A DNA stretch of 64,000 nucleotides from a virus (Duplodnaviria > Caudoviricetes), in IMG/VR virus record IMGVR_UViG_2799112265_000002, positions 1 to 64,000 of that record, one strand, 5' to 3'. The notes below the pieces were generated by a model that saw nothing but the letters and a program-made list of their open reading frames with translations, did not search any database and was not told the DNA's origin. Of the stretch, positions 2,182 to 63,159 are shown piece by piece; the stretch's first letter is position 1, and every line of letters starts with the position of its first letter. A program made the translations under genes and the position numbers.

Positions 2182-2331
2182 TCAGGCCGCTTCCGCGTCT
2201 GCGTCCTGCGGGGTGAAGAGGATGGTGAGGAGCCGGTTCCAGCGGCTGTCTTCCATCCGGTTGTTGGTGAGGGTCACGGTGACCTGGGGCTCGTCGGAGC
2301 CCGAGGTATTAAGCGCTACGAGGTTCGTCAT
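2182..2331 (-). CDS. 49-aa protein upstream of the serine integrase (MTNLVALNTSGSDEPQVTVTLTNNRMEDSRWNRLLTILFTPQDADAEAA); possible directionality factor
   Basis: Manually translated ATG..TGA with GC-type codon usage, co-oriented with the integrase; function is inference. Confidence 0.6.
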   Translation of the reverse strand: MTNLVALNTSGSDEPQVTVTLTNNRMEDSRWNRLLTILFTPQDADAEAA

Positions 2332-2451
2332 AACGCGTACCGTACTACTCCTTACTCGTTACGTCTATAGAACGCGTTGTATAGCGGATTGCGCGAACCG
2401 CTTGCGGTCGGTAGGCTCAGGGCACCAACCGCACTGAACCAGGGGGTACGC

Positions 2452-3519
2452 GTGACCACCACACTGCGCAGCGCCATCGACGAGTACCTGGGGCATCGCC
2501 GGACCGCCAAGGCCGACAACACCATGCGCACGGACGCGAGCCTGCTCCCGCGCTTCGCCGACCACGTCGGCAACCCCGACTTCGACGCGCTGACCCCGGA
2601 GCAGGTCGCCGGCTTCTTCCAGGGACTGCTGAACATCCACGTCACCCGGATCAAGGGCCAGCAGATCGTCGCGGCTGTCGGGCCGGGCACGCACAACCAC
2701 TACCGCAAGCGGCTGAACGTCTTCTTCAGCTACGCCCACGCCCGCGGCCTGGCGCCCCGCAACGACTACCTCTCCCTGGTCGAGCCGCTGCCGGAACTCA
2801 AGCGGCAGCGGATGCAGCCCTCCCCGAGCGTGCTGCTTCAGCTCCTGGACCAGGCCGAGTGCGCCATGCACCGCGCCTACCTCGCCGCGGCCGTCAACAC
2901 CGCCTGCCGGGCCAGCGAGCTGGTGAACCTGCGCGTCGGGGACGTCGACTTCGCCCGCAGCGAGCTGTTCGTGACGGTCATCAAGACGCACGAGGAGGAC
3001 GAGATGCCGCTGACGGCCGACCTGGAGCGCGAGCTGCTGGCCTGGTTCGAGGAGTACGCGGCCCTGCTCGGCCGGCCGCTGCGAGACGACGACTACCTCT
3101 TCCCGGCCCGCAGCGGCAACCAGATCAAGACCCACTACCTGGACGAGAAGACCGGCAAGCGGGTGTACGAGCGCACCCCGATCGTCTACCACCCCGACCG
3201 GCCGGTGGAACGCACCGAGAAGATCGTCAAGGGCGCGCTGGCCAAGCTGGGCTTGCCGACCCGCTACGAAGGCACGCACACCGTGCGCCGGGCGGTCGCC
3301 CGCGCCTACTTCGACCAGCTCGCCCAGGACGCCGGCTACGACGCCGCGCTCCGTACGGTCTCGGCACTGCTGCACCACTCGTCGATGTCCACCACCGAGC
3401 GGTACCTGGGTCTGTCCACGGAGAGGAAGCGACGGGACGAGACGATGAAGGGCCGGCCGTTCCTGACGGCGATGGTCCCGCAGCAGAGCAACGTGATCCC
3501 GCTGCGGCGGGTGCGCTGA
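2452..3519 (+). CDS. Tyrosine recombinase (XerC/D-like)
   Basis: Catalytic set R (ACRASE), K (VIKT), HxxR (HTVRR), H (LLHHS), Y (TERYL). Confidence 0.92.
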   Translation: MTTTLRSAIDEYLGHRRTAKADNTMRTDASLLPRFADHVGNPDFDALTPEQVAGFFQGLLNIHVTRIKGQQIVAAVGPGTHNHYRKRLNVFFSYAHARGLAPRNDYLSLVEPLPELKRQRMQPSPSVLLQLLDQAECAMHRAYLAAAVNTACRASELVNLRVGDVDFARSELFVTVIKTHEEDEMPLTADLERELLAWFEEYAALLGRPLRDDDYLFPARSGNQIKTHYLDEKTGKRVYERTPIVYHPDRPVERTEKIVKGALAKLGLPTRYEGTHTVRRAVARAYFDQLAQDAGYDAALRTVSALLHHSSMSTTERYLGLSTERKRRDETMKGRPFLTAMVPQQSNVIPLRRVR

Positions 3520-3522
3520 CAC

Positions 3523-3565
3523 GACGAAGGCCCCACCGGTCTGCTACTCCGGTGAGGCCTTCGTC
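3523..3565. terminator. Stem-loop after the tyrosine recombinase
   Basis: GACGAAGGCCCCACCGG / CCGGTGAGGCCTTCGTC inverted repeat directly after the stop. Confidence 0.75.
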
Positions 3566-3568
3566 TGC

Positions 3569-6545: not shown

Positions 6546-8753
6546 TTGAACGACGCATGGAACATCCCAGGCTTCACCGTCCAGAACGAGAACTGGGGCG
6601 ACGCACTTAATACCTCGGGCGATCCGGCGCCCACCCTCCCGGAGAGCGTCAAGACCGTCACTGTCACCGGCACCTTCCTCGACGACTGGGGCAAGCCGGC
6701 GGCCGGCCGGTTCGTCTTCGACCCGTCCATCGACAGCCTGGTGGACCCTGTGTCCGGCCTCACGATCCGGCTGCGCCGCAAGGAAGTCCATCTGGTCAAC
6801 GGCCAACTCTCCGAGCCGCTGATCGCCACCGACAACGACGCCCTGAGCCCGAAGAACTTCACGTACAAGGTCTCCGGTGTCGTGTCCGGGACGGTGCAGC
6901 GCCCCTTCAGCGTCGCGCTGCCGTCCGCCGTGCCGACGGTTTCGCTGGCCGCCCTGGCCGAGGTGCCGTCCTCCATGGGCACCATCAGCGTTCCAGCCAT
7001 ACCCGGACCCAAGGGGGACACGGGACTGAGCGGACCGGCCGGACCCAAGGGTGACACCGGACTGACCGGGCCCAAGGGTGACACCGGACCCCAGGGCACC
7101 CCCACCACCGTCAACGGCAAGACCGGGGCGAGCATCGACCTCACCGCCAGCGACGTGAACGCCGATGTGGCCGGGGCCGCCACAGCAGCAGTCAACGCCC
7201 ACCTCCAGGCGACCGACCCGCACGGTGACCGCAGCTACGCGGACAGCACCTTCCAGCCGCTCCTGAACGGACCACTGACGGGCGTCTACAACGTCCGCTC
7301 CTACGGAGCCAAGGGCGACGACACCACCGACGACTATGACGCCATCAACGCCGCACTCGCCGCGTGCCCCGAGGGAGGCACCCTGTTCTTCCCGCCCGGC
7401 CAGTACCGCGTGCGGGCACCGCTGATGTTCACCCGGAACCGGACCTACCGGGGATCACACGCCCCCAGGTGGCAGTACCGGGGCGGCTCCCCGTGTGTGA
7501 TCAAGCCGCATCCGTCGTTCACTGGGTCGAAAATCATCCACATCGCCGACAAGGAGATCACCGGGGCCTCCCTGGACAACGACGGCGGCCGGATCGAGAA
7601 CCTTGCGATCCTCGGACAGAACGCCGGGTCTGGGGTGGTCGGAGTCCTCTTCGAGGGACTGGTCCGGGACTGGAAAGTCCGCGATGTTGACGTCTCCAAC
7701 ACCTCCGGCAACGGATGGCAAACGTTGGGGTTTGCCTCCAGCGACAGCACCACGCACTATCCCCGTGGACTCGACCTGTACTCCGTCACCTCCTACGCCG
7801 CCCACAACAACGCCTTTTCGTTCGCGAGCCTCACCGACTCAACTGTCTTCGACGCCCTCGCGGTCTCTGCCACCTCGATCGGCTTCCTCATCGACAACCC
7901 GGGCGAGGTCAAGTACATCGGCTGCCGGTCCGTGTTCAACCAATCGGACGGGTTCAGGGTGACCGGGACGGTGTCCGTAGGCGGAGTGCAGTTCGTGGGA
8001 TGCAGCACCGACCGGAACCAGACCTACGGCGTACGCGTCACCGCGTCCGGCTCCCAGCCGATCACCTTCACGGACCTGCTGACTCGACGAGACGGGAAGA
8101 ACAGCAACCTGGGAGGGGGCGGCTACTCAGGGATTGCGGTCCTCGGCACGTCCGGCGCCACGGCATGCCCCGTGGTGATTACCGGGCTCTCCCAGGTTGT
8201 GGGCGTGGATGACGGCGCGGCCAGCACCGGCAACGACAGTCCCCAGTACGGCGTGCGCGTTGAGTACGCCAAGCACGTCCGGGTGTCGGGAGCAGCGTGG
8301 GGTGCCACCAACGCGGTGTTCGACAACGGGAACAACACCAGCCTCGACATCTCTGGCCTCTACCGCCAGAACGGCCTCGCCGCCGCGCGAGCGGTGGAGA
8401 CCACCGTGGTAGGTGCGCAGCCAACAGTGACCGCTGCGAGCGGCGCGGGAACCTCCCCTCCGTCGCCGACCCTCGCTTCGTCGTCCGACAACATCTCCGG
8501 CGTCGTGAACCTCGGTACGGGCACCTCACCGACTACCGGCAGCCAGGCCACCGTGACGTTCGCCAGGACCCGCGCCCGAGTCCCGGTCGTCGTCGCCGTG
8601 CCGGCGAACACCTCTACAAATGCCCGGCAGGTCGGCGTTGCCAACGTCACCGCGAGCGGATTCACGCTGACATTCGGTGTCGCCGGAACTGCGTCACAGC
8701 CGGCGGGTACCTACCAGGTGTCCTATCACGTGCTCGACCAGGCAAACGGATAA
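6546..8753 (+). CDS. Collagen-repeat plus pectate-lyase-like beta-helix protein (fibre/depolymerase)
   Basis: GPKGDT collagen repeats; YNVRSYGAKGDDTTDDYDAINAAL...LFFPPGQY beta-helix cap. Confidence 0.8.
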   Translation: MNDAWNIPGFTVQNENWGDALNTSGDPAPTLPESVKTVTVTGTFLDDWGKPAAGRFVFDPSIDSLVDPVSGLTIRLRRKEVHLVNGQLSEPLIATDNDALSPKNFTYKVSGVVSGTVQRPFSVALPSAVPTVSLAALAEVPSSMGTISVPAIPGPKGDTGLSGPAGPKGDTGLTGPKGDTGPQGTPTTVNGKTGASIDLTASDVNADVAGAATAAVNAHLQATDPHGDRSYADSTFQPLLNGPLTGVYNVRSYGAKGDDTTDDYDAINAALAACPEGGTLFFPPGQYRVRAPLMFTRNRTYRGSHAPRWQYRGGSPCVIKPHPSFTGSKIIHIADKEITGASLDNDGGRIENLAILGQNAGSGVVGVLFEGLVRDWKVRDVDVSNTSGNGWQTLGFASSDSTTHYPRGLDLYSVTSYAAHNNAFSFASLTDSTVFDALAVSATSIGFLIDNPGEVKYIGCRSVFNQSDGFRVTGTVSVGGVQFVGCSTDRNQTYGVRVTASGSQPITFTDLLTRRDGKNSNLGGGGYSGIAVLGTSGATACPVVITGLSQVVGVDDGAASTGNDSPQYGVRVEYAKHVRVSGAAWGATNAVFDNGNNTSLDISGLYRQNGLAAARAVETTVVGAQPTVTAASGAGTSPPSPTLASSSDNISGVVNLGTGTSPTTGSQATVTFARTRARVPVVVAVPANTSTNARQVGVANVTASGFTLTFGVAGTASQPAGTYQVSYHVLDQANG
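7004..7100 (+). repeat. Collagen G-X-Y coding repeats
   Basis: Three imperfect GGACCCAAGGG(G/T)GACAC units encoding GPKGDT. Confidence 0.85.
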
Positions 8754-11289: not shown

Positions 11290-12159
11290 ATGACGCTTAA
11301 TACCTCGGGCATCTCGGTGCCCGCCGACGCGATCATCGGTTACCGCAGGGACGGTCGTCCGATCCGCCCCATCGCAGGTGGTGCTCCGCAGCCCGGCGAG
11401 GGCGTCGAGACCGGTGAGCCGGTCGTCGTCGTCCCGGCCGCTGTCGTCGAGCCGCCTGCGCCGGCCCCGGCTGAGCCCCGCTTCACCGCGGACGACATCC
11501 AGAGGGCCCGCCAGGAGGAGAAGGACAAGTTGTACAAGCGCCTCCAGACCGTGGAGGAGCAGAACAAGAAGTTCCTGGACGAGATCGAGGCCCAGCGCAA
11601 GCAGCGCGAGGAGGCCCAGGCCGAGGAGGCACGCAAGCGCCAGGAGGCCCAGGCCGAGGCCAAGCGCAAGGCCGAAGAGGACATGTCCGCCAAGGAGCTG
11701 CTCCAGCAGAAGGAGCAGGAGTGGGCCTCCCGCTTCGAGCAGATCGAGCGGCAGCGTGAGGAAGAGCGCCTTCTGTTCGAGAAGGAGCAGGCCTTCAACA
11801 ACCTCCAGCAGTACATTCAGCGTCGCGTTGGTGAGGAAACCAACGAGCTCGCTCCCGAACTTCTCGACTTCGTCGGCGGAAATACGCCGGAGGAGGTCGA
11901 GGCGTCTATCGCTACAGTCAAGGCGAAGACCCAGGCTATTCTGGAATCGGTCCAGCAGGCCGCTATTCAGCAGCGCGCCTCCATGCGTGGTGTGAGCCCC
12001 ACCGGCTATTCCACCACCGGACCGATGGACTCTGATCCGGGCACCAAGTCGTACTCCCTTTCTGACCTCCGCGATATGCCGATGTCGGAGTACGCCAAGA
12101 TTCGGGGCCAGTTGGGCGTTGGCAATGCCGCCCAGAACCAGCGTGGACTGTACTCGTAA
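11290..12159 (+). CDS. Capsid scaffolding protein
   Basis: Charged coiled coil immediately upstream of the capsid gene. Confidence 0.75.
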   Translation: MTLNTSGISVPADAIIGYRRDGRPIRPIAGGAPQPGEGVETGEPVVVVPAAVVEPPAPAPAEPRFTADDIQRARQEEKDKLYKRLQTVEEQNKKFLDEIEAQRKQREEAQAEEARKRQEAQAEAKRKAEEDMSAKELLQQKEQEWASRFEQIERQREEERLLFEKEQAFNNLQQYIQRRVGEETNELAPELLDFVGGNTPEEVEASIATVKAKTQAILESVQQAAIQQRASMRGVSPTGYSTTGPMDSDPGTKSYSLSDLRDMPMSEYAKIRGQLGVGNAAQNQRGLYS

Positions 12160-14474: not shown

Positions 14475-15287
14475 ATGGCCACCCTTGAGGATCTGCGTAC
14501 GCGCATGCGCTCGGAGCTGGGCGACCGGCTGACGCCGTTCCGTGACACCATCCGGGGCACAGGGGACGTCGCCGAGTACGAACTGAGTGCCAACAACGTC
14601 ACCGGCCTGGAGGTTGTCCAGGTCGTCGGCACAACCCAGACGGTGCTTAATACCGGCACCGACTATGTGCTGGACCCCCTGAACGGCATCCTCACCCTCA
14701 CCCAGCCGCTGCCGCTGGACGCGCTGCTGCTCGTTTCCGGGCAGTCCTACAGCCTGTTCGCCGACGACGAGCTGGACATGTACCTGGGGGATGCCTTCGC
14801 CCAGCACAACCGCGGCCGGACCATCGCTACCCGGTACCGGGACACCGACGGCTTCATCCGCTACAACGAGGAGCCCGTCGACTTCTCCACCCTCCCGCCG
14901 GAGGAAGACGTCCTCGTGGTCTACCTCGCGGTCGTCGAGGCGCTGTGGGCCCTGTCCACGGACGCGAGCACGGACATCAACGTGCAGACGGCCGATGGGA
15001 CTTCGGTGGACCGGCGCCAGCGCTTCGACCAGATCCAGTCGCAGATCAACGCGCTCACCGAGCGGTACAAGTTCCTGTGCAGCCAGATGAACGTCGGCCT
15101 GTACGCGATCGAGGTCACCAACCTGCGCCGCGTCTCCCGTACGACCGGCCGCCTGGTGCCCATCTTCCGCGAGCGCGAGTACGACGACTACTCCCTGCCC
15201 CAGCGGGTGCTGCCGCCGATCGGGCCGGGTCACCAGAACGATGACGAGTCCGGTGTGCCGTCGCAGACGTGGGGTGGTTGGTGGTGA
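14475..15287 (+). CDS. Head-tail adaptor (neck) protein
   Basis: Synteny; N-terminal LR..MRSELGD adaptor-like helix. Confidence 0.6.
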   Translation: MATLEDLRTRMRSELGDRLTPFRDTIRGTGDVAEYELSANNVTGLEVVQVVGTTQTVLNTGTDYVLDPLNGILTLTQPLPLDALLLVSGQSYSLFADDELDMYLGDAFAQHNRGRTIATRYRDTDGFIRYNEEPVDFSTLPPEEDVLVVYLAVVEALWALSTDASTDINVQTADGTSVDRRQRFDQIQSQINALTERYKFLCSQMNVGLYAIEVTNLRRVSRTTGRLVPIFREREYDDYSLPQRVLPPIGPGHQNDDESGVPSQTWGGWW

Positions 15288-38399: not shown

Positions 38400-38495
38400 G
38401 CCCACCACACCCCGAGGCCCACCACAAACCCCGAGATGGGAAGAACCTAACATGCCCAGCCGACTTAATATCAACGGCGGATTCGGAGCCGCCGA

Positions 38496-40290: not shown

Positions 40291-40347
40291 ACTGTTGACT
40301 TCCCACAACGGGCTTAATACCCGGCTCCGCGAGGCGGAGCGCACCTG

Positions 40348-43250: not shown

Positions 43251-43297
43251 GAGCACACCGTGACGCTTAATACCTGCCCCCGCGAGGGGGACCCCCG

Positions 43298-46487: not shown

Positions 46488-46958
46488 ATGAGCACCATCG
46501 CCAACAGCATCGACCAGGCCTTCGCCGAGATCGGCGAGCAGTTCTACCCCGGCTCGACGCGCCCCTTGGTACGTCACCGGAACCGGCTTAATACCGAGGC
46601 CGCCCCGTCGGCGGCCGACCCCAGTGCCTGGGACGCCAAGCCGCGCAAGTACGTGGTCGGTGGCGTGGAGACCGAGTTCTTCACCGTCGGCCAGTTGGCC
46701 CAGGCCCTCGGCCGGCAGCCGGTCACGATCCGGAAGTGGGAGCGCGAGGGAGTCATCCCGAAGAGCACCTTCCAGTCCCCGGGCCGTGACGGAGACGTCC
46801 GCGGCCGGCGCCGCCTCTACACCCGCGCGCAGGTTGAGGGCATCGTCCGCATCGCGCACGAGGAGGGCGTCCTGGTCTCCCACCAGAAGCCCATCAAGGA
46901 CACCCAGTTCACCCCCCGGGTGATCGCCCTGTTCGAGCGTCTGGCGGCCGAGCAGTGA
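46488..46958 (+). CDS. MerR-like HTH DNA-binding protein
   Basis: FTVGQLAQALGRQPVTIRKWEREGVIP...RRLYT. Confidence 0.85.
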   Translation: MSTIANSIDQAFAEIGEQFYPGSTRPLVRHRNRLNTEAAPSAADPSAWDAKPRKYVVGGVETEFFTVGQLAQALGRQPVTIRKWEREGVIPKSTFQSPGRDGDVRGRRRLYTRAQVEGIVRIAHEEGVLVSHQKPIKDTQFTPRVIALFERLAAEQ

Positions 46959-50536: not shown

Positions 50537-51006
50537 TGGGACTGTTCAGCAGGAAGAACAAGGACGAAGACAACCCGCTCGACGCGCTTAATACCGACGA
50601 CGACCTCCAGGTCGACATCTACACCCCGCAGATGCTGACCAAGCGCCTGGCCTGGGACATCGTCCCGTGCAGCGAGGTCGAGCGGCTGATCCCCCTCATG
50701 GGGCTCACCCCTGACAGCCCCGACGTCTCCGACATGGAGCACAAGGCCAGCCACGACAGGATCGACGCGCTCGCACCCCTGAAGGAAATGCTAGCGCTGT
50801 TCATCCCGATAGTTTCTGGCATTACCGCCTCGGCTATGCTGGTTAACTCCGGAAATTCCGTGGACGAGGAAACCGCAGCAGTTCTTCAGCGGCATCATTC
50901 CGTAGTCGTCCGCGCCGGAATTGTGGCGATCCTCGCCAATCTCCTCGACATGGGAATCATCAGTTACGCGGATGGAGTGCAGTTCGGTGACGAACTTCTG
51001 GGCTAA
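50536..51006 (+). CDS. Hypothetical protein
   Basis: TAATG coupling. Confidence 0.7.
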   Translation: MGLFSRKNKDEDNPLDALNTDDDLQVDIYTPQMLTKRLAWDIVPCSEVERLIPLMGLTPDSPDVSDMEHKASHDRIDALAPLKEMLALFIPIVSGITASAMLVNSGNSVDEETAAVLQRHHSVVVRAGIVAILANLLDMGIISYADGVQFGDELLG

Positions 51007-51445
51007 CAAACTGGGGGCGGCCACTCGACCGGCCGCCCCGGCCCCGGCCCCTGCGCCGGTACAGCAGCAGCCGCAGGGCGGAGCCTGGTGGAAGCCGCAG
51101 CCGACAGCGGCCTACCCCACCCCGCCCCAGCCCCAGCCCCAGCAGACAGTGCCACTTAATACCGAGGGCCAGGCACCGGCCCGCGCAATGGTGGCCAAGC
51201 AGGACACTCACTGCCCTGACTGCGGAGGCTCGAACTACTTCAAGCCGGTGGGCATGCACAACGCCATGTCGCAGTGCTACGAGTGCGGCTACAACCCGCG
51301 CTTCCAGCAGTCGACCGCCGGCCTGCCGTCTGGCAGCGGAGGAGACGGACCCGCCACGCCCGCCAAGCAGGTCGCCTCGGGCGGTCTGGGCGGCCGGAGC
51401 AACTACAACCCCGGCGCCATCATCCGGCCCGACGGCTCGGTCTAA
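50987..51445 (+). CDS. Pro/Gln-rich Zn-ribbon protein
   Basis: CPDC..CYEC. Confidence 0.65.
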   Translation: MTNFWANKLGAATRPAAPAPAPAPVQQQPQGGAWWKPQPTAAYPTPPQPQPQQTVPLNTEGQAPARAMVAKQDTHCPDCGGSNYFKPVGMHNAMSQCYECGYNPRFQQSTAGLPSGSGGDGPATPAKQVASGGLGGRSNYNPGAIIRPDGSV

Positions 51446-51488: not shown

Positions 51489-53438
51489 GTGACCACCCTG
51501 CTCACTACTGCCGGTGACCTTGCAGACCCTTACCGTAGTTTCATCGCCAAATCGCGCTACTCCAGGTGGCTCGACGACGAGAACCGGCGCGAGACCTGGA
51601 CCGAGACCGTCGCGCGCTACGTGACATTCATGCTGGCCCAGTTGAAGGACAAGCACGACTACACCCCCGACCCCCAGGTGGTCGACGAGATCCACGCGGC
51701 CATCCTCAACCACGAGGTCATGCCGTCCATGCGCGCCGTCATGACGGCCGGCCCCGCCCTGGACCGCTCGAACATCGCCGGGTTCAACTGCTCGTACCTG
51801 CCGCTGAAGGACGCCCGCGCTCTCGACGAGTTGCTGTACATCCTCATGAACGGCACGGGCGTGGGCTACAGCGTCGAGCGCAAGTACACCGACCAGTTGC
51901 CCCCGGTGCCGGACGCCCTGCGCCAGACCAAGGACAAAATCGTGGTGCACGACAGCAAGGAGGGGTGGGGAATCGGCTTCCGGCTGCTGCTAGAGGATCT
52001 GTGGCAGGGCAAGGTGCCGACGTGGGACCTGTCCAAGGTGCGTCCGGCCGGGGCCCGGCTTAATACCTTCGGAGGTCGAGCCTCCGGTCCTGAGCCGCTG
52101 AACGAACTGTTCGAGTTCGTGGTGCAGAAGTTCCACCAGGCCGCCGGTCGTAAGTTCAGGCCGATCGAGGTCCACGACATCGCCTGCAAGATCGCATCCG
52201 TGGTGGTCGTGGGTGGCGTGCGCCGGTCCGCGATGATCAGCCTGAGCGACCTGGACGACAAGGAGATGGCCGAGGCCAAGTCGGGGGAATGGTGGGTCGA
52301 GCACCCCTACCGCGCCCTCGCCAACAACAGCGCGGTCTACACCGACGGCATGCGGCACGAGGACTTCCGCACCGAGTGGGACTCCCTCGTTGCCTCCGGC
52401 AGCGGTGAGCGCGGCATCTTCCACCGCGGGGCGGCGCAGAGGCAGGCCGCACGGTTCGGCAAGCGGGAGTCCGACACCGACTACGGGACCAACCCGTGCT
52501 CGGAGATCATCCTCCGGCCGTTCTCTTTCTGTAACTTGTCCGAGGTCGTCGTCCGGGCCGAGGACACCCCCGAGACCCTGACCCGGAAGGTGCGTCTGGC
52601 GGCTGTCCTCGGCACGTGGCAGTCGACCCTGACCGACTACCCGTACCTGCGCGACGAGTGGCGCAAGAACGCGGAGGAGGAGCGCCTGCTGGGCGTCTCC
52701 CTCACCGGGGTCTACGGCAACCCCTACACCAACGGAAGCAAGGGTATGGGGCTGACGTCGCTCGCCCTGACCGTCCTGCGCTCGGAGGTCGTCGAGGCCA
52801 ACGCTGCCGAGGCCCGGCGCATCGGTATCGCGGCCTCGGTAGCGACCACCTGCGTCAAGCCGTCCGGCACGGTATCCCAGTTGGTGGACTGCGAGTCCGG
52901 CCTGCACCAGAAGCACGCGAAGTTCTACTTCCGGCGGGTGCGGGTGGACAAGAAGGACCCGATCGCGTTCGTACTCATCGACGCCGGCCTGCCGTACGAG
53001 GAGGACGCCTACAACAGCGCCGCGTGGGTGTTCACCTTCGCTCAGCGGGCTGCCGAGGGGGCCCTCGTCCGTGAGGACGTGTCGGCCATCGAGCACCTGG
53101 AACTGTGGTTGGCCTATCAGCGCGCGTGGTGCGAGCACAAACCGTCGGTGACCATCTCCGTGCGCGAGCACGAGTGGGAGCAGGTCGGCGAGTGGGTGTG
53201 GGAGCACCTGGACGAGATCTCCGGCGTCTCCTTCCTGCCGTACTCGGATCACACGTATGTGCAGGCGCCGTACGAGGAGTGCACCGAGGCCGAGTACGAG
53301 GCGCTGGCCGCGAAGAACCACCGCGTGGAGTGGTCGGACCTGGCGTTCTACGAGACGTTCGACCAGACGAAGGGCTCCCAGGAACTGGCCTGCTCCGCGG
53401 CCGGCGGCTGTGAGGTCGTCGACCTCGTGACCACCTGA
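51489..53438 (+). CDS. nrdJ: Class II (B12-dependent) ribonucleotide reductase
   Basis: FNC, VRRSA, TNPCSEI, FCNLSE, VKPSGT, C-terminal Cys pair; no beta-subunit gene nearby. Confidence 0.9.
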   Translation: MTTLLTTAGDLADPYRSFIAKSRYSRWLDDENRRETWTETVARYVTFMLAQLKDKHDYTPDPQVVDEIHAAILNHEVMPSMRAVMTAGPALDRSNIAGFNCSYLPLKDARALDELLYILMNGTGVGYSVERKYTDQLPPVPDALRQTKDKIVVHDSKEGWGIGFRLLLEDLWQGKVPTWDLSKVRPAGARLNTFGGRASGPEPLNELFEFVVQKFHQAAGRKFRPIEVHDIACKIASVVVVGGVRRSAMISLSDLDDKEMAEAKSGEWWVEHPYRALANNSAVYTDGMRHEDFRTEWDSLVASGSGERGIFHRGAAQRQAARFGKRESDTDYGTNPCSEIILRPFSFCNLSEVVVRAEDTPETLTRKVRLAAVLGTWQSTLTDYPYLRDEWRKNAEEERLLGVSLTGVYGNPYTNGSKGMGLTSLALTVLRSEVVEANAAEARRIGIAASVATTCVKPSGTVSQLVDCESGLHQKHAKFYFRRVRVDKKDPIAFVLIDAGLPYEEDAYNSAAWVFTFAQRAAEGALVREDVSAIEHLELWLAYQRAWCEHKPSVTISVREHEWEQVGEWVWEHLDEISGVSFLPYSDHTYVQAPYEECTEAEYEALAAKNHRVEWSDLAFYETFDQTKGSQELACSAAGGCEVVDLVTT

Positions 53439-53566: not shown

Positions 53567-54850
53567 ATGCCGCTTAATACCTGCGCGGGTGGCCCCGACA
53601 AGGAAGCCCTCGCACTCGTCGCAAAGATCAACAAGGCGCACCCGGGCGCCGTCTGCTTCGCCTCGGAGATGCGCATCCCCAAGCGGTTCACCTCCGGCTC
53701 ACTGTCCCTGGACATCGCCCTCGGTGGCGGCTGGCCGGGCAACCAGTGGGTCGAGGTCATCGGCCGCGAGTCCCACGGCAAGACCGCCATCGTCTACAAG
53801 ACCCTCGCCGCCAACCAGAAGAAGGACCCCACCTTCACCTGCCTGTGGATCGCCGCGGAGCACTACGACGTCGACCAGGCCTCCGCCCTCGGCGTCGACA
53901 ACGAGCGCGTCCTGGTGGTCCCCACCCAGGCCATGGAGTTCGCCTACCAGACCATGCTCGACTTCGCCGAGTCCCGCTCCGTCGACATGATCGTCCTCGA
54001 CTCCTACCCCGCGTTGATCGCGGACGAGGAGCAGGAGAAGGACATGGACGAGGCCGTCATGGCGCTCGGAGCGAGACTGACGGGCAAGTTTTTTCGCAAG
54101 AGCGGGGCGGCCACCAAGCGGTCCATGACGGACGCCGACGACCGCCCGCTGTTGGGGATCGTCATCAATCAGTACCGGGACGCCATCGGCAAGTTCTCAC
54201 CCCACGGCACACCGACAACCACCCCGGGCGGCAACGCCAAGAACTACGCGTTCTACACCCGCGTCGAGGTCCGGCGCGACGAGTGGATCCAGGAGTCCCG
54301 GCCGGGCAAGGGCAAGGTGAACGTCGGCCAGGTCATCAAGGTCAAGACCATCAAGAACAAGTCCGCCGCCCCGCAGCAGACCGCGACGATCGACTTCTAC
54401 TTCCGCAGCGCCCCCTTCATGAACTTCGCCCGCGGTGACTACGACACCGTCAAGGAGATCATGATCATGGGGATCCTCTTCGACGTCATCCAGCGCAAGG
54501 GCGCGTACTTCCAGATCGACAACGGCGAGTACGACGACAAGGGCAAGCCGGTCCTGCGCTGGCAGGGCAAGGACGCCATGCTCGACCACATCCGCCAGGA
54601 CCTGGACCTCCAAGAGGCCCTGTACGAGAAGATCCTCGTCGCCTCCAAGAAGGTCGACGAGCGGTCCATTTCCGAGGAGGACCTGGAGGCCGCCGAGTCG
54701 GCCGGCACCAAGAAGGTCCGGCGCCGTCCCTCTGGAGTCATCGACGACGGTCGGTACGAGCCCGGCACCGACCCGGAGAAGGACGCGAAGATCATGGCCC
54801 AGATGAACGCCCAGATGATGGCCGACGGGCTTAATACCGAGGCCGCCTGA
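53567..54850 (+). CDS. recA: RecA-like recombinase
   Basis: SGSLSLDIALGGG, GRESHGKT, VLDS, INQ.R, TTPGG, KNK. Confidence 0.92.
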   Translation: MPLNTCAGGPDKEALALVAKINKAHPGAVCFASEMRIPKRFTSGSLSLDIALGGGWPGNQWVEVIGRESHGKTAIVYKTLAANQKKDPTFTCLWIAAEHYDVDQASALGVDNERVLVVPTQAMEFAYQTMLDFAESRSVDMIVLDSYPALIADEEQEKDMDEAVMALGARLTGKFFRKSGAATKRSMTDADDRPLLGIVINQYRDAIGKFSPHGTPTTTPGGNAKNYAFYTRVEVRRDEWIQESRPGKGKVNVGQVIKVKTIKNKSAAPQQTATIDFYFRSAPFMNFARGDYDTVKEIMIMGILFDVIQRKGAYFQIDNGEYDDKGKPVLRWQGKDAMLDHIRQDLDLQEALYEKILVASKKVDERSISEEDLEAAESAGTKKVRRRPSGVIDDGRYEPGTDPEKDAKIMAQMNAQMMADGLNTEAA

Positions 54851-55104: not shown

Positions 55105-55327
55105 GTACAGCGTCGAGTACAAGGTCACCGGCAAGAAGCAGTACTCCCTGAAGGACGCAGAACTTCAGACCGCGGAGAAACAGGCCCTCCTCGACGGCAG
55201 GGAAATGCTCTTCGGGATCCAGATGGAAAGCGGAAGGAACTGGATCGTGATGAGCGAGGAAACATTCCTCACGCTTAATACCCAGGCGTTCCCGGACGCC
55301 GACCCCGACGAGGTGCTGTCGTGGTAA
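54983..55327 (+). CDS. PD-(D/E)xK nuclease / resolvase-like protein
   Basis: QE...GSG...KND...VEYK.T. Confidence 0.7.
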   Translation: MADMLKKSQKQERRGAELLGGTVNAGSGNGWVRKNDVRTPEYSVEYKVTGKKQYSLKDAELQTAEKQALLDGREMLFGIQMESGRNWIVMSEETFLTLNTQAFPDADPDEVLSW

Positions 55328-57558: not shown

Positions 57559-58293
57559 ATGTCGCTTAATACCTCGGTCGCTCCGGCGGCCGTCACCTTC
57601 CGCAGCACGATCACCGCGACGCTCGACACCGAGACCGTTGCCGGGTCGGACGCCAAGATCTGTAAGGCCGCCCGGGTCTCCACGGTCGGCGCCGCCGCGG
57701 CGGAGACCGGTGAAGCCCGCGGCCTGATCAACTACCTCATGAAGAACAGGCACGGCTCCCCGTTCGAGCACGCGCAACTGTCCTTCCTCGTCGAGGCCCC
57801 GATCTTCGTCGCCCGCGAGTTCATGCGTCACAGGGTCGGCTGGAGTTATAACGAAACCAGCGGCAGGTACCGGGAGTTGGAGCCCGTCTTCTACATGCCG
57901 CCGGCCTCCCGCCCTCTGGTCCAGGTCGGCAAGGCGGGGGAGTACTCCTTCGAGCACGGCACCCACGAGCAGTACGACGCCGTCGAGCACTCCTTCGGCG
58001 TCATCTACCGCGCCGCCTACAGCCACTACCAGCAGATGCTGGGCCGGGGAGTGGCCCGCGAGGTCGCCCGCAGCGTCCTGCCGGTCGGCACGTTCACCTC
58101 CTTCTACGCCACCTGCAACCCGCGGTCGCTGATGCACTTCCTCAGCCTGCGTACCACCTCCGCGTGGGCCACCTTCCCCTCTTTCCCCCAGGAGGAGATC
58201 GAGCGGGTCGCCGACGACATGGAGAAGGCATTCTCCCTGCACTTCCCACTCACGTGGGAGGCCTACCTCGACAACGGAAGGGTCTGCCCGTGA
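57559..58293 (+). CDS. thyX: Flavin-dependent thymidylate synthase
   Basis: HGSPFEH, RHRVGWSYNETSGRY, AREVAR.VLP. Confidence 0.95.
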   Translation: MSLNTSVAPAAVTFRSTITATLDTETVAGSDAKICKAARVSTVGAAAAETGEARGLINYLMKNRHGSPFEHAQLSFLVEAPIFVAREFMRHRVGWSYNETSGRYRELEPVFYMPPASRPLVQVGKAGEYSFEHGTHEQYDAVEHSFGVIYRAAYSHYQQMLGRGVAREVARSVLPVGTFTSFYATCNPRSLMHFLSLRTTSAWATFPSFPQEEIERVADDMEKAFSLHFPLTWEAYLDNGRVCP

Positions 58294-58837: not shown

Positions 58838-59433
58838 ACGCCACCACCGCCCCCGTCGACCCCGACACCGAGATCGTCGAGTCCTGGCTGCCGCGGTACA
58901 TCGGCCTCCACGGCTTCGCCGGCACCGGCAAGGACGCCGTCGCCAAGATCCTCGCCAACTACGGGTACGAGCGGGTCGCCTTCGCCGACGTCCTGCGCGA
59001 GGCCCTGTACGTCCTCAACCCGATCGTGTCGTACGGCTACACGGGACAGCAGTGGCTGAGCGAGGTCGTCGACCACCTCGGATGGGACCTGGCCAAGCGC
59101 GAGTACCCGGAGATCCGCCGGATGCTCCAGGTCCTCGGCACCGAGGTCGGCCGCGAGATGATCGACCAGAACGTCTGGGTCAACTCGGTGTTCAAGAAGT
59201 TGGAGGAGGGCAAGAAGTACGTCTTCACCGACGTCCGCTTCGTCAACGAGCACCAGGCGATCGACTCCCGCCTCGGCCTGCTGGTCAAGATCGACCGCCC
59301 CGGCTACGGCCCCGTCAACGCCCACAAGAGCGACAAGGGCCTGCCCGACGAGTGGTTCGACGTCCGGATCGTCAACGACGGCAGCCTTGAGGACCTTAAT
59401 ACCAAGGTGCGCGAGATGCTGAGGCTCGCATGA
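58834..59433 (+). CDS. Deoxynucleoside monophosphate kinase
   Basis: G.AGTGKD, FAD.LR, R..LQ.LGTE.GR, TDVRF.NE. Confidence 0.9.
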   Translation: MNATTAPVDPDTEIVESWLPRYIGLHGFAGTGKDAVAKILANYGYERVAFADVLREALYVLNPIVSYGYTGQQWLSEVVDHLGWDLAKREYPEIRRMLQVLGTEVGREMIDQNVWVNSVFKKLEEGKKYVFTDVRFVNEHQAIDSRLGLLVKIDRPGYGPVNAHKSDKGLPDEWFDVRIVNDGSLEDLNTKVREMLRLA

Positions 59434-60527: not shown

Positions 60528-60541
60528 TTAAGGAGCCAGCA

Positions 60542-60883
60542 GTGGCGAAGAAGAAGAACAGCGGCATCACGACGACGGACAACCCGTCGCTGCGGCCGAC
60601 CATGGGCACCGACGCCTCCCGGCTGGCCAACGTCGCCAAGCCGATCAAGGGCCGCAGCGTGCCGAAGAAGGGCAACGCCAAGGGCGGCTTCCTGGAGGCC
60701 GCGACCGCCAAGCACCGCCCCGGCATCCTGGAGCGCAACGGCGCCTCCCTGCGGCCTACCGCGATCCTCTACCAGGCCAACGCCGCCGAGGCCGGCGCGG
60801 TCCAGCGCAACGTCGTGACCGTTCCGTCCGCCATCGGCAACCGGGACTTCTACGCGAGGCGCCAGTACGGCCAGGGCATGTGA
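60542..60883 (+). CDS. Basic hypothetical protein
   Basis: AAGGAG RBS, Lys-rich. Confidence 0.65.
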   Translation: MAKKKNSGITTTDNPSLRPTMGTDASRLANVAKPIKGRSVPKKGNAKGGFLEAATAKHRPGILERNGASLRPTAILYQANAAEAGAVQRNVVTVPSAIGNRDFYARRQYGQGM

Positions 60884-60896
60884 GCAGGTAGCGACC

Positions 60897-61454
60897 ATGT
60901 CCAGCAACTGGCAGTACTTGCCACCGATGGGCATCGGGCAGCCGGGCGCTCCAGTGCGCGCGAATGGTGGAGCAGGAACAGATGGGCTCACCTTCCGCGA
61001 TGGTCTGGACGCCCGGCGCGCTGCTATGGGCGCTCGCACGCCCTCCGCGGAGTACCCCGACGGCTACCTCGGCACGATCAACGACAGACGACGCGACCGC
61101 GTCATGGAGGGCGTCCAGAAGCGCCTGACCGACCGCAGCTACCAGCGCGGTGTCCACAAGGGCGACGTGATCGACCGCTCCGACTACTTCTGGCCGGACG
61201 CCGGGGGAGTCAACCCCCAGGCAGGTCTCGTCTACGAGGCCCGCGGCCTGCGCTGGACCCAGTCCGGCACCCCCGAGGAGCGCCTGGCCCACATGGGCAA
61301 GAACGCAGCCCTCAGCCCCGCGGAGATGGGCGCCCTTCAGCAGAAGTACGGCATCTCCGAGGTCATGGCCGACATCGACCCGGTGCGCAGCGAGCGGCTG
61401 AAGAAGCTGCTGCCGTCCGCCTCCCCGTACAACTCGCCCGACCAGTGGAGGTGA
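60897..61454 (+). CDS. Hypothetical protein
   Basis: Codon usage and RBS. Confidence 0.7.
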   Translation: MSSNWQYLPPMGIGQPGAPVRANGGAGTDGLTFRDGLDARRAAMGARTPSAEYPDGYLGTINDRRRDRVMEGVQKRLTDRSYQRGVHKGDVIDRSDYFWPDAGGVNPQAGLVYEARGLRWTQSGTPEERLAHMGKNAALSPAEMGALQQKYGISEVMADIDPVRSERLKKLLPSASPYNSPDQWR

Positions 61455-61569
61455 GCGTGCGCTCGAAGGAGTTCCGCGGCCAGATCGCCGCGATCAAGAA
61501 GGCCACGCCCAAGACCCCCGACCAGTCCATCCGTGACGCGCAGAAGACACAGGGAGCAGGTTCGTCGTA

Positions 61570-63159
61570 ATGCTCACGAAGAAGGAAATCGCCGCCCAGA
61601 ACCGGGACTTCAAGGCGACACAGAGGGGCGCAGCCGCGCAGATCAAGGCGGTCACCCCGCGCGCCAACAAGAAGACGCCCGGTCCGGGAGCGTACTTCGG
61701 AAGTGGCACCCCCGTCGCTCCCAAGGACACCCCGAAGGCCTCGGAAGTCGCTCCACCGGAGGGCTCCGGCATACCCGCGGTCACCCCCAGGCAGGAGAAG
61801 AAGGCCGCGGGGGTCAAGAAGCAGTTCAACAGCATCCGCGACACCTCGACCACGACGAAGAACCTGGCCAAGCGGCAAGCCCACGAGGCGGCCCACCCTG
61901 AGCGCTGGCAGTCCATCCAGGACCACCCGGGCGCCGGGTCGAACCCCCGCCAGTCCTACGGGCTGATGGGGAACACCGACAAGGCGCCGAACCTGCACGG
62001 CCAGCAGGAGCTGGAGGCCGTCAAGCGCGAGGGCAACACCTTCGTCTCTGACACCTCCGCCGATGTCTGGCACGGCCAGCACACCATGAACCCGACCCGG
62101 GACATGATGCCGGTGAACAAGCGGTGGGAGGACCACACTCCGGCGGAGCAGGCTCGTGTGCTGCGCTCGGCTGCGAAGTTCGGCGTCACCCCCGACTCCG
62201 CGCACCGTGCGCTGGCGGCCCAGGTGGACCGCGCCTACGCCCACGAGGGCGGGCACCACGACTCCTTCTACAGCCCGGCCGAGGACCACACCCGCGACGG
62301 CTCCCTGAGCCCGCGTGCGCGCCTGAAGGTGTCCGCGCAGGAGAATGGCGTCCCCTTCGGCGTCCAGGCCGCTGCGAACGCCATCACGTCCCCGCAGAAC
62401 GTCTTCGTGCGCCCGGACAAGAACACCGGCAAGGCCGTCTACCCGAACGACGAGGCCGCCTCCCACGCGATCCAGTGGGCGAAGTCGGGCAGGACCGGCG
62501 AGCAGTACGAGCGGCACCCGGACTACTACGTCCCGGCCGCCGACAAGGTGAAGAAGATCGTCACCTCGAAGTCCGGGCAGAAGAAGATGGAACTGGTGAA
62601 GCGGGACGACGACCCCCGCGCGTACCCGGTCAACGGCTACCCGGCCAACGCGAAGACGGCGATCGACGTCACCCACCAGGTCCTCAACGGCAAGCAGTTG
62701 TCGGACGCGTGGAAGCCGACTGCCGGCGAGAAGGTCTCGGCGTATCACAACTCGTGGGTCGACCCTCACGGCTCCAGCCAGTTCTGGGTGTCCGACACCC
62801 ACTCCGGCGGTGGCGCTTTCGCCCCGCACCTGGAGGACAAGAAGGGCTCCGGCAGCCAGCAGGCCTACATGGGCATCAAGGGCATCCACGCCTTCCACGA
62901 CCACATCGCGCGGAATGTGATGCAGGAGCGGGGCCTGAATTCGCTCACCAACATGCAGTCCGCCCAGTGGAGCGAGGAGAAGCGGCGCCGCGGCGACAAC
63001 CACGACGCATCGCTTAATACCTACGGCAAGAGCGGGCTTAATACCGAGGTCCACCCGGACCAAGGTCACCTGGAGGAGGGCGGTAGCAGCCTGTCCGCCC
63101 GCGGCATTGTTCCGAGCAGCAATGCGGTGGCCGCCGCTGTACGAGGACGGCGAAAGTAA
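61570..63159 (+). CDS. Basic hypothetical protein with possible HhH-glycosylase-like C-terminal domain
   Basis: A.TSPQ, KV.AY, DTH and MQ.AQW pattern; weak assignment. Confidence 0.55.
   Translation: MLTKKEIAAQNRDFKATQRGAAAQIKAVTPRANKKTPGPGAYFGSGTPVAPKDTPKASEVAPPEGSGIPAVTPRQEKKAAGVKKQFNSIRDTSTTTKNLAKRQAHEAAHPERWQSIQDHPGAGSNPRQSYGLMGNTDKAPNLHGQQELEAVKREGNTFVSDTSADVWHGQHTMNPTRDMMPVNKRWEDHTPAEQARVLRSAAKFGVTPDSAHRALAAQVDRAYAHEGGHHDSFYSPAEDHTRDGSLSPRARLKVSAQENGVPFGVQAAANAITSPQNVFVRPDKNTGKAVYPNDEAASHAIQWAKSGRTGEQYERHPDYYVPAADKVKKIVTSKSGQKKMELVKRDDDPRAYPVNGYPANAKTAIDVTHQVLNGKQLSDAWKPTAGEKVSAYHNSWVDPHGSSQFWVSDTHSGGGAFAPHLEDKKGSGSQQAYMGIKGIHAFHDHIARNVMQERGLNSLTNMQSAQWSEEKRRRGDNHDASLNTYGKSGLNTEVHPDQGHLEEGGSSLSARGIVPSSNAVAAAVRGRRK

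Follow-up and report, generated by a model that had tools for sequence, protein, structure and literature searches.

A strand-oriented nine-base word with an adjacent stem-loop in the coding sequences of temperate Streptomyces myoviruses: two alleles and a candidate transcript-level address

The stretch of DNA analysed here, the window, comprises positions 1 to 64,000 of the IMG/VR virus record IMGVR_UViG_2799112265_000002 (G000; Duplodnaviria, Caudoviricetes), that is, the first 64 kb of a record of 105,651 bp classed as a provirus; our subject is a nine-base word, CTTAATACC, which recurs in its coding sequences and which we call the box. Family scans identified a structural module of myovirus type (terminase, SPP1-type portal, capsid, sheath, tube and baseplate), a replication module (DnaC-like protein, DnaB, DnaG-type primase, family A polymerase, ribonucleotide reductase, RecA and ThyX) and, at the left end, two recombinases. 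Among named phages the closest are the Streptomyces phages BRock, LuckySocke, Alone3, GiJojo and pSt2308, with capsid identities of 74–75%, and the capsid of a prophage in a sequenced Streptomyces isolate is 94% identical, which identifies G000 as a temperate Streptomyces phage.

The window holds 26 exact copies of the box, all on the + strand except the copy at 2305 (−). An earlier note, made from the letters of the window alone, had listed these copies, and all 26 coordinates and strands proved exact; its by-eye GC content of about 68% was too high, the measured value being 65.2%. Dinucleotide-preserving shuffles of the window contained 0.02 copies on average, with 0 of 100 shuffles reaching 26, and one-mismatch variants numbered 5 against 1.8 expected, so the word is sharp. 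Over the whole record there are 37 forward copies and one reverse copy (38 in total), at a mean spacing of ~2.8 kb and, as the note had remarked, in structural and replication genes alike. The immediate flanks are biased, with G at position −1 in 20 of the 26 window copies and 26/37 genome-wide (in-frame control positions, 0.37; p = 5e-5), and GG at +3/+4 in 15/26 and 15/37, respectively (control, 0.14; p = 7e-5). Both window counts reproduce those of the note; the flanks of the box are not repeated between sites.

Genes were called with a tool based on GC content at third codon positions (GC3). Thirty-three of the 38 copies lie inside called genes, and all 33 are read in the register CTT-AAT-ACC, encoding Leu-Asn-Thr (LNT); the remaining five (40313, 43266, 51155, 72326 and 87634) lie in open reading frames (ORFs) that are open in the same frame, frame 0. 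No copy out of 38 falls outside an open frame-0 ORF, though 12% of the region from 4.6 to 105.6 kb is uncalled. The 37 + copies sit in + strand ORFs and the sole − copy in a − strand ORF, and in five other analysed genomes every copy in a called gene keeps the register CTT-NAT-ACC. Of the 35 LNT tripeptides encoded by called G000 genes, 33 are spelled CTTAATACC, and the ordinary spelling, CTGAACAC, occurs at 28706 and 47138; synonymous-codon shuffles (n = 300) averaged 0.56 copies and never exceeded 4, versus the 33 observed. Of six Gly-Ile-Lys contexts in G000 that could hold the reverse complement, none does. On all these points, the sense-strand placement, the fixed register, the two ordinary spellings and the missing reverse complement, the note had read the sequence correctly, and its proposal of nucleotide-level selection survived the codon-preserving shuffle. 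The codons concerned are rare (CTT 4.8, AAT 3.2 and CAT 1.9 per 1000, with TTA at 0.03 and ATA at 1.2); of the two alternative frames of this box, one holds TAA and the other TTA-ATA. Copies also lie close to gene starts, with 15/37 within 60 nt of a called start versus 16% of random positions (p = 4e-4). It is the nucleotide sequence of the box, not the encoded peptide, that is under selection.

The same conclusion follows from the relatives of G000. Among the closest metagenomic relatives (capsid identity 92–95%), some carry CTTAATACC and others lack it entirely; the latter hold CTTCATACC, sometimes CTTCATACT, at orthologous box positions. We refer to the two groups as A-type and C-type phages. 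At 22 of the 37 + positions of G000, CTTCATAC(C/T) is present in at least one C-type genome and the A form in none, and a few other positions hold one-off remnants in C-type genomes. With both alleles counted together as CTTMATACY, the ratios of forward to reversed copies are 37:1 (G001), 32:1 (G002) and 10:1 (G003) in C-type records and 27:1 (G004) and 20:1 (G005) in A-type records, the relatives holding 11–38 copies per record. Exactly one copy is in the opposite orientation in each of G001–G005, and all eight records that cover the region of the reversed copy (G000–G005, G010 and G011) hold one reversed copy of their own type. After six further records were added to the first set, seven were A-type and five C-type, and neither a G nor a T allele was seen in the examined records. 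The family-specific variants that the earlier note had suggested looking for in related prophages thus exist, and they switch in concert. The encoded peptide follows the word: LNT occurs 35 times in G000 genes versus 4–6 times in C-type genomes (~6–9 times commoner in the A-type), and Leu-His-Thr (LHT) occurs 36 times in G001 versus 3 times in G000. Lineage-specific copies face, in the genomes without them, an ordinary spelling of the identical peptide or of one close to it, and correspond to synonymous changes from CTG-AAC-ACC to CTT-AAT-ACC in A-type phages and from CTG-CAC-ACC to CTT-CAT-ACC in C-type phages. Because the residue changes from Asn to His while the remaining nucleotides stay fixed, selection is on the nucleic acid, is ongoing and maintains one allele per genome, and the concerted switch of a single exact allele in each genome points to one trans-acting reader with one specificity. 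Two off-type copies, with no others, were observed: a C-type copy in A-type G004 (57,754 in the orientation used here), where the surrounding patch is common to this genome and C-type phages, and an A-type copy in the C-type record G011 (G011:C18:136147). They suggest recent recombination between the types.

These controls also dispose of a non-functional origin, in which the pattern would be a product of codon bias, of a recurring peptide or of small mobile elements inserted into the genes; we found nothing in its favour and consider it almost certainly wrong. Codon bias is contradicted by the synonymous shuffles, and a repeated peptide by the exchange of LNT for LHT between types under an otherwise fixed nucleotide word. 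Insertion, whether as a footprint or as a small mobile element resembling repetitive extragenic palindromes (REP) or miniature inverted-repeat transposable elements (MITE), was rejected: the flanks are not repeated, and 13 of the 14 LNT copies covered by alignments with BRock and GiJojo orthologues align to residues rather than gaps. The counterparts are ordinary residues, e.g. LRE, LVA and IND, which indicates that the word was written by substitution and not by insertion of nine bases; beside the box of the tail sheath gene there is a one-residue gap in each of its two alignments. The box is a clean case of strong selection writing a nucleic-acid signal into coding sequence, with 33 of 35 LNT tripeptides in one spelling.

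The word is confined to one small clade of temperate Streptomyces myoviruses. Among 80 IMG/VR and 26 GTDB loci, it was limited to the closest, with a major capsid protein identity of at least 92%; apparent hits in L068, L055 and L082 were repeated peptide motifs of tail proteins, and the word was not found in G012 or G013. BRock, LuckySocke, GiJojo and pSt2308 hold zero to one copy, and k-mer scans of them gave no comparable word; neither the word nor an analogue was present in other Streptomyces prophages or in a Terracoccus prophage whose capsid is 84% identical. In a lysogenic Streptomyces genome of 10.7 Mb, 36 of 62 CTTMATACC matches (35 +, 1 −) fall in one 104-kb stretch of contig 18, and the other 26 (14 +, 12 −) are scattered over the remaining ~10.6 Mb, a density ~140-fold lower in the chromosome than in its prophage; the A form has no copy outside the prophage stretch. 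The comparison with a host chromosome called for by the earlier note thus shows that the word is not host-wide, and a host-orienting word (Chi, KOPS or an uptake sequence) was rejected, as the word is not over-represented in the lysogen chromosome. One sequencing run contained the entire stretch and may be the source of the assembly; in root metatranscriptomes (two RNA runs) the share of words was 0.06.

The box is only one part of the element. Compared with equal spans at random in-frame positions of the genes concerned, the 40 nt that follow the box form more stable folds (−14.1 vs −10.5 kcal/mol in G000, z −5.8); a similar excess was found in G001 (z −6.9) and G002 (z −5.5), and no extra stability was found in the 40 nt before the box. 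When a site was scored only for an unbroken stem of 5 bp or more, with four or more G-C pairs and starting 0–3 nt after the box, the counts were as follows:

G000: stem at 22/37 sites; controls 6.2%; mirror position upstream, 4.
G001: stem at 19/37 sites; controls 6.1%; mirror position upstream, 4.
G002: stem at 15/32 sites; controls 5.0%; mirror position upstream, 4.
G011: stem at 25/40 sites; mirror position upstream, 3.

Across genomes, 47–62% of sites thus carry a stem, versus 5–6% of controls in G000, G001 and G002. The commonest start is 2 nt after the box, and the GG preference at +3/+4 is the foot of the stem. Stems and loops differ at every site, with loops of 3–9 nt in the scored stems and no conserved sequence, and stems are mostly retained at orthologous sites (27 site families): of 219 consensus pairs, 121 are invariant, 34 show a change in one partner, 17 show changes in both partners and 65 are disrupted in one or more sequences. 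The element is composite, consisting of the box, 0–3 nt and a GC-rich stem-loop of variable sequence, rather than the bare 9-mer that the earlier note had described. G-U content proved uninformative as to the strand of the hairpins: the G000 stems are nearly all Watson-Crick, with 27 G-U among 374 pairs, and the other strand folds equally well. Intrinsic terminators were rejected, as no T-run follows the stems, and a terminator scan of 83–103 kb returned 5 sites versus 9.6 expected from shuffles.

The sites in the window, each box located by exact match to CTTAATACC, and the ORFs associated with them are as follows, with stem starts counted in nucleotides after the box.

2182..2331, −: 49-codon ORF between the serine recombinase gene 1–2055 (−) and the tyrosine integrase gene 2452–3519 (+).
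2305..2313, −: reversed box, 6 codons after the ATG of ORF 2182–2331 (−), the only reversed gene with a box; 6-bp GC stem (−) starting 2 nt after the box.
6606..6614, +: box, 20 codons into ORF 6546–8753, a pectate-lyase-like/collagen tail protein.
11296..11304, +: box, codons 3–5 of ORF 11290–12159, the gene before the major capsid gene; 6-bp stem at +2.
14646..14654, +: box, codon 48 of ORF 14505–15287; specific to G000.
17132..17140, +: box, codon 189 of the tail sheath gene 16568–18106.
18723..18731, +: box, codons 5–7 of the baseplate gene 18711–19580; 6-bp stem at +0.
22763..22771, +: box, codon 1005 of the tape-measure-like gene 19751–22930; a C-type orthologue exists in G001.
25667..25675, +: box, codon 172 of the 1603-codon baseplate spike gene 25154–29965; long stem at +0.
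36402..36410, +: box, codon 103 of ORF 36096–36707.
38058..38066, +: box, codon 313 of ORF 37122–38333.
38452..38499, +: 15-codon mini-ORF with a decayed box, CTTAATATC, at 38464–38472.
39709..39717, +: box, codon 26 of the DnaC/IstB-like ATPase gene 39634–40290.
40280..40348, +: short frame-0 ORF holding box 40313–40321, its TGA overlapping the ATG of ORF 40348–40803; 7-bp stem at +2.
43260..43301, +: 13-codon mini-ORF made of a Shine-Dalgarno sequence, GTG, one codon and then box 43266–43274.
46587..46595, +: box, codon 34 of the MerR-like gene 46488–46958; 7-bp stem at +2.
47811..47819, +: box, codon 49 of ORF 47667–48479; 7-bp stem at +0.
48599..48607, +: box, codon 14 of the family A DNA polymerase gene 48560–50536.
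50587..50595, +: box, codon 18 of ORF 50536–51006.
51155..51163, +: box in an open frame-0 ORF directly 5' of the called ORF 51188–51445.
52059..52067, +: box, codon 191 of the ribonucleotide reductase gene 51489–53438; 8-bp stem at +1.
53573..53581, +: box, codons 3–5 of recA (53567–54850).
54830..54838, +: box, 3 codons before the recA stop; 7-bp stem at +2.
55274..55282, +: box, codon 98 of ORF 54983–55327 (resolvase-like by PHROG).
57565..57573, +: box, codons 3–5 of thyX (57559–58293); 7-bp stem at +1.
59395..59403, +: box, codon 188 of the deoxynucleoside monophosphate (dNMP) kinase gene 58834–59433, 35 nt before the next ATG.
63013..63021, +: first box of a twin, codon 482 of ORF 61570–63159.
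63037..63045, +: second box of the twin, codon 490 of ORF 61570–63159; 5-bp stem at +2; C-type orthologues exist.

Comparison of these sites with their relatives illustrates the range of allelic states. C-type phages read CTTCATACC at 18723 and CTTCATACC or CTTCATACT at 11296, and C-type orthologues of the 25667 box exist. The 17132 box is kept in aligned A-type loci, and C-type phages show remnants or nothing there; at 38058 they show the one-off remnants CTTCATACG and CTTCATATC, and at 63013 CTGAACACC, the ordinary LNT spelling. At the aligned place of the G000-specific copy at 14646, relatives read CT-CACC or CTGAGCACC. At 48599, LNT aligns to LRE in BRock and GiJojo, again indicating substitution rather than insertion. 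The stems at 46587 and 54830 are each conserved in eight distinct orthologous sequences. The reversed site at 2305 reads GGTATGAAG on the + strand in aligned C-type relatives, and the ORF that contains it had no hit in family scans; among seven aligned relatives all its indels are multiples of three and its ATG is conserved. At this prophage end, the small reversed ORF with its reversed box is flanked by the tyrosine integrase and by a large serine recombinase (1–2055, −) with a C-terminal DUF4096 (IS4/5 transposase-like) segment. Between conserved genes, the HNH endonuclease gene 47191–47664 (+) is without counterpart in the five relatives compared and, from its sequence setting, looks like a homing-endonuclease insertion.

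The copies outside called genes follow the same frame rule. Twelve apparently out-of-frame or intergenic copies in relatives, inspected singly, all resolved to frame 0 of a short ORF or of a gene start or end. In eight independent families of intergenic copies, an in-frame start lies 2–11 codons upstream, usually with a Shine-Dalgarno sequence, and the stop of the mini-ORF overlaps the next start (ATGA, TGATG, GTGA or TTGA) or falls directly after the box. The stop of mini-ORF 38452–38499 overlaps the GTG of ORF 38496–39500 (HTH_36), and the equivalent mini-ORF holds CTTCATACT in G001 and G002. The stop of mini-ORF 43260–43301 overlaps the ATG of ORF 43298–43594, and G001 has at this junction a non-homologous 19-codon mini-ORF with CTTCATACC, such that the A- and C-type mini-ORFs have only the box in common. 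The recA box is located in G001 and G002 in a separate 10-codon upstream ORF whose stop overlaps a TTG start of recA. Programmed frameshifting or bypassing found no support: stops in the +1 frame are not closer to the box than to controls in G000, G001 and G002 (median distance 44–49 codons after the box vs 31–33 at controls), and −1-frame stops are no closer in the two C-type genomes, the G000 box itself supplying a −1-frame TAA. Around the copy at 72,326, the region G000 ~72,200–72,600 contains an uncalled 132-codon ORF with unusually low GC3 and a membrane-like N-terminus, rich in words such as GGAAT(T)C, GGATTC and GGAATC, a pattern kept in the five genomes printed; this ORF may double as a DNA-level repeat region.

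Outside the window, the copy at G000 87,634 has an anatomy of its own. In five of six genomes inspected, this box ends a leader of 6–8 codons whose Shine-Dalgarno sequence and start are supplied by non-homologous upstream sequences, and in G001 it ends a longer ORF instead; the leader frame ends exactly with the box and a stop codon in 10/10 aligned genomes. The 4–7 bases after the box are followed by GGGTATT in A-type and GGTATG in C-type phages, a 6–7-nt anti-box that pairs AAUACC with GGGUAUU and CAUACC with GGUAUG, respectively. The type-specific pair is A-U in 5/10 sequences and C-G in 5/10, with 100% of helix cells paired. A second strong helix at the leader shows two compensatory pairs, and slid controls were never more than 43% paired; a third small helix, seen by eye only, lies over the Shine-Dalgarno-like GAGAGG before gene 87720–88427 (HTH_17/DUF2637). 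A scan of the genome collection with the leader pattern gave no match. A guide RNA is not favoured, since each genome has just one full anti-box, the antisense of its reversed gene. GGTATT is also present at window positions 53,506–53,511 (+), 62 nt 5' of the recA box in G000; before recA, G002 and G011 (C-type) have GGTATG and G001 has GGTATA, and none of four GGTATT sites in G004 is near recA. A second anti-box before recA is possible from these sequences, inconsistent as they are across genomes.

Downstream of the leader are genes for RlaP, an Rnl1-type RNA ligase, PNKP and an Lsr2-like protein, and a tRNA cluster. tRNA-Pro(TGG), tRNA-Phe(GAA), tRNA-Leu(CAA) and tRNA-Asn(GTT) are present in 11/11 records covering the cluster, and an extra 86-nt tRNA-His(GTG) in 4/5 C-type records (G001, G002, G010 and G011; G003 is C-type without the gene) and 0/6 A-type records. 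The middle codon of the box thus matches a phage tRNA in both types, a match that can be a cause, as in the translational gate weighed below, or a consequence, namely compensation for ~37 added rare CAU codons. The tRNA-His gene adjoins that of tRNA-Asn (e.g. L110:1737-1822, −) and has a long type-II-like variable arm, unusual for tRNA-His. The RNA-repair set at G000 89,487–93,448 comprises an RlaP-type nucleotidyltransferase, a T4 Rnl1-type RNA ligase and PNKP; the ligase and PNKP genes have one box copy each, and PNKP identity is 90–92% within the A-type and 64–73% to the C-type. The Lsr2-like nucleoid protein is encoded at G000 94,926–95,297. Within the tRNA cluster, a cyclic di-AMP (ydaO-type) riboswitch aptamer at G000 95,912–96,051 (L130:12912-13051) scored 59.6 bits versus a gathering score of 38, directly 5' of the LysM and NlpC/P60 cell-wall hydrolase gene 96142–96678.

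A search for a reader of the element yielded leads only. Of the readers suggested by the earlier note, the MerR-type helix-turn-helix (HTH) protein at 46488 was confirmed as a domain, the ORFs at 4611 and 37122 had no family hit, and SpoVS gave no hit among the ORFs called and scanned; none of them could be linked to the motif. Among the 38 genes conserved in complete motif-bearing genomes and missing from motif-less kin is that of a 97-aa protein (102903–103196), with 73–77% identity within the A-type and 38–57% to the C-type. Its structural model (pLDDT 74; order α-β-β-α-β-α) retrieved HicA toxins at ranks 1, 3 and 5 of a wide search (Z 4.9, 4.7 and 4.1), with alignments covering 55–59 of 58–66 residues; the Foldseek E-value is weak (0.6), there is no Pfam hit, and ESM Atlas gave no lead. 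His44 is invariant in 12 close homologues. The HicA fold (α-β-β-β-α, with a catalytic His) is double-stranded-RNA-binding-like; beside a single-stranded site such a fold would suit a box plus hairpin, and on the model the protein is a lead as a reader. The XRE-type regulator 100635–101444 (−) is 63% identical to its A-type and 65–80% to its C-type homologues, so its identities do not follow type; it belongs to a minus-strand pair (100,445–101,444) of XRE-HTH/DUF5753 'Sco1979 family' and DUF397 proteins typical of Streptomyces regulators. The tRNA-guanine transglycosylase/DpdA-like protein 70527–72065 was rejected as a reader, its fold being real but its gene conserved in motif-less kin. This 512-aa protein (L129:7527-9062) matched PHROG 887 'queuine tRNA-ribosyltransferase' (1e-78), but sequence comparison with Pfam, NCBIfam and PDB gave no hit. 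Four of its Cys are invariant, the N-terminal part of its model is a confidently predicted α/β barrel, and Foldseek placed archaeosine and bacterial tRNA-guanine transglycosylases at the top (E ~1e-4), interspersed with other TIM barrels. Judging from this model, it may exchange bases in DNA (DpdA-like) or in tRNA.

The account that we tentatively favour, at somewhat less than an even chance, is that box and hairpin form an RNA-level address on lytic transcripts, read by a type-specific phage factor that controls the lytic programme. The box would be the single-stranded part of a composite cis-element, present in ~38 copies on the sense strand of nearly all lytic operons, and a phage-encoded, type-specific factor, most likely a protein, would recognise box plus hairpin on lytic mRNA or nascent RNA and set expression of the whole lytic programme at once. 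Its most likely use would be to keep lytic expression low in a lysogen and in any superinfecting phage that shares its type, in which case the A and C types would represent two immunity specificities. The 87.6-kb copy, its box sequestered by the covarying anti-box, could be the system's own switch, placed before an operon-like run of an HTH gene, the RNA-repair genes and the tRNA cluster. We infer RNA as the level of action, the existence of a reader and the direction of its effect. The adjacent stem, the sense-strand rule that holds even in the reversed gene, and the anti-box together point to a single-stranded, transcription-tied element, most simply mRNA or nascent RNA, and this anatomy fits a transcript-level element better than a roadblock on double-stranded DNA. 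By analogy with stoperators, for which it is documented, immunity diversification would best explain the allele switching. The fixed register and the mini-ORFs would be the least costly means of fitting the box into a genome whose genes are tightly translated and coupled: untranslated gaps are unaffordable there and the alternative frames contain TAA or TTA-ATA, which makes both features effects of cost. Several points weigh against this account. Ribosomes translating through mid-gene sites would displace any factor bound there, and an RNA-binding reader needs neither a single register nor translated ORFs, which the account explains by cost only. Folding cannot tell RNA, single-stranded DNA and a DNA inverted repeat apart, and no Rfam family matches the element. 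The A- and C-type phages also form two phylogenetic clades, so that any association of a candidate reader gene with type is confounded by phylogeny, and the candidate pool comprises all 38 clade-specific genes.

Two alternatives place the reading in translation. An RNA address code locked to the register, unlikely but a serious possibility in our estimate, would be read only during translation, by the ribosome with a phage tRNA (Asn or His) or by a factor docking on ribosomes that pause at the box, and would license or veto the lytic programme post-transcriptionally; the A/C switch would then define two mutually blind systems and the leader would be a sensor. If true, immunity would operate at the level of mRNA decoding, and the leader would couple decoding to the tRNA and RNA-repair genes. 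The main rival, which we judge rather unlikely, is a translational gate, in which CUU-AAU-ACC (CUU-CAU-ACC in the C-type) and the hairpin form an in-frame pause keyed to the supply or state of phage-encoded tRNA-Asn (A-type) or tRNA-His (C-type). With the stem at the ribosome entry channel, the P site would be occupied by CUU and the A site by the rare NAU codon; the 87.6-kb leader would act as an attenuator, sensing this step of decoding and controlling the RNA-repair and tRNA genes. Much of the anatomy agrees with a gate, including the register in all called copies and the 12 resolved exceptions, the eight intergenic families with Shine-Dalgarno sequence, in-frame start and coupled or box-adjacent stop, the rarity of CTT, AAT and CAT, the most frequent hairpin start 2 nt after the box, the distribution of tRNA-Asn and tRNA-His, and the leader ORF that ends at the box in 10/10 genomes. 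The tolerated variant CTTCATACT keeps a Thr codon, presumably read by the same tRNA-Thr. A precedent is the translational control by a rare codon (UUA) plus local structure that has been proposed for Streptomyces phages (PMC10732093). A slow-codon pause, however, needs neither an exact 9-mer nor G at −1; strict type exclusivity is unexpected when C-type phages keep tRNA-Asn, and G003 is C-type without tRNA-His. The off-frame stops reveal no frameshift-abort design, the extra tRNA is equally well explained as compensation for the added CAU codons, and host tRNAs can probably read all three codons, which would make a gate leaky.

The remaining alternatives act on DNA or on RNA ends. As classical stoperators, the boxes would be double-stranded sites bound by an immunity repressor that blocks RNA polymerase in an orientation-dependent manner, with A and C types heteroimmune and the 87.6-kb pair an inverted-repeat operator; copy number, spread, orientation and concerted variants match the published description, the weak flanks (G at −1, GG at +3/+4) would extend the site to ~14 bp, the covarying inverted half-sites at 87.6 kb can equally be read as a palindromic operator, and the minus-strand XRE-type gene 100635–101444 is a possible repressor. 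Yet a roadblock is met before the hairpin is transcribed, which leaves no role for the enriched stem, and the absence of any copy outside a frame-0 ORF (with 12% of sequence uncalled) and the mini-ORFs are unexplained; the XRE identity does not follow type, and an L5 gp71-like repressor was absent from the family-scan hits, no search aimed at one having been made. Overall we find stoperators in the strict sense improbable. About equally improbable is mRNA processing with a positive role, in which a site-specific endoribonuclease, perhaps the 97-aa protein with its HicA-like modelled fold, would cut in or directly after the box and the stem would then protect the 5' end of the downstream fragment, much as at the RNase III sites of T7 but through a phage-specific nuclease. 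A 5'-end stabiliser needs short spacing to its stem, and the 0–3 nt found here suit it, as do the proximity of boxes to gene starts, the encoded enzymes that heal and seal RNA ends (RNA ligase, PNKP and RlaP), and the HicA matches, three of the five best, of a protein that diverges strongly between types. Cuts within ORFs, often 2–6 codons after the start or mid-gene, would nonetheless destroy the message, and the HicA-like match is weak (Z < 5, Foldseek E 0.6, no Pfam). Very unlikely, in our view, is a signal in single-stranded DNA, either strand-specific nick sites (of T5, phiKMV or tf type, or for an HUH-type enzyme) or lagging-strand priming signals. The single strand, the exact word, an adjacent hairpin that folds equally as DNA, the ~2.8-kb spacing and the encoded DnaG-type primase and DnaB-type helicase are compatible with it, and the box appears to resemble the CTTGATA nick core of phiX174 and pC194-type origins. 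Against it, the conserved reversed copy lies in a reversed gene and switches type, which fits transcription rather than the polarity of packaging or of replication; at no point does the orientation flip along the genome, which assembles with terminal repeats; register and mini-ORFs are unexplained; and Pfam and PHROGs scans identified no family of HUH, Rep, relaxase or Y1 enzymes, and a rough search for the H-u-H pattern was uninformative, its one match being a protein that is not clade-specific.

If the element acts on the transcript or on the translating ribosome rather than on duplex DNA, as its anatomy indicates, a temperate phage would have a previously unknown means of controlling or marking its entire set of lytic genes together and of diversifying its immunity. 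Some sequenced Streptomyces isolates are lysogens, and the two natural alleles provide built-in specificity controls. A literature search with four words returned only primer-type matches and nothing on phages among the matches listed, and in the literature on stoperators in Streptomyces phages and on bldA/TTA codons and terminase we found no description of the element. R4-like Streptomyces phages are said to have a repressor-stoperator system. Short words repeated in an actinophage genome near gene boundaries are also familiar from the start-associated sequences of Cluster K phages, which lie directly upstream of start codons and include the ribosome-binding site, and from phiC31, whose repressor binds conserved inverted repeats as palindromic operators; unlike these, the present word is an in-frame coding word with a variable hairpin. 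Control by bldA and UUA is another parallel, in that rare CTT and AAT or CAT codons are read in frame beside a hairpin in phages with tRNA genes. In Streptomyces phages, UUA-based control of essential genes and, in the phiHau3 terminase gene, UUA-triggered bypassing have been proposed, the cases amounting to 3/100 terminase genes, with one codon and a broken frame (PMC10732093). Here, in contrast, an exact three-codon word occurs ~38 times with the frame intact and with biased flanks.

In its order of box and then hairpin, the element recalls the nut sites of lambda (boxA, spacer, boxB), which serve N antitermination, on a strand of action that we infer; in both systems the specificity differs between related phages. 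The lambda genome has two nut sites, located in leaders that are not translated, and N binds their conserved loop; in G000 there are ~38 translated sites with loops of 3–9 nt and no conserved sequence. HK022 Nun exclusion acts on the same nascent RNA, a prophage protein blocking a superinfecting phage through RNA sites. Stoperators are sites of ~13 bp in double-stranded DNA bound by a repressor and located mostly between genes, and Cluster A-type repressor-stoperator immunity is the one system from which genome-wide arrays of oriented sites are known. As in L5 and Bxb1, there are tens of asymmetric, oriented sites here (38, in a ratio of 37:1) and two concerted types, in line with the 20–30 sites, oriented with transcription and with a consensus that differs between heteroimmune phages, given for Cluster A in the published description (PMC6550527). 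The analogy with stoperators drawn in the earlier note accordingly stands for copy number, orientation and family variants and fails for the anatomy of a bare site. Unlike stoperators, the sites described here have an exact 9-mer core that is translated in a single register, a variable stem-loop beside it and one copy paired with an anti-box, and the proposed mechanism would resemble stoperator immunity in logic, not in anatomy.

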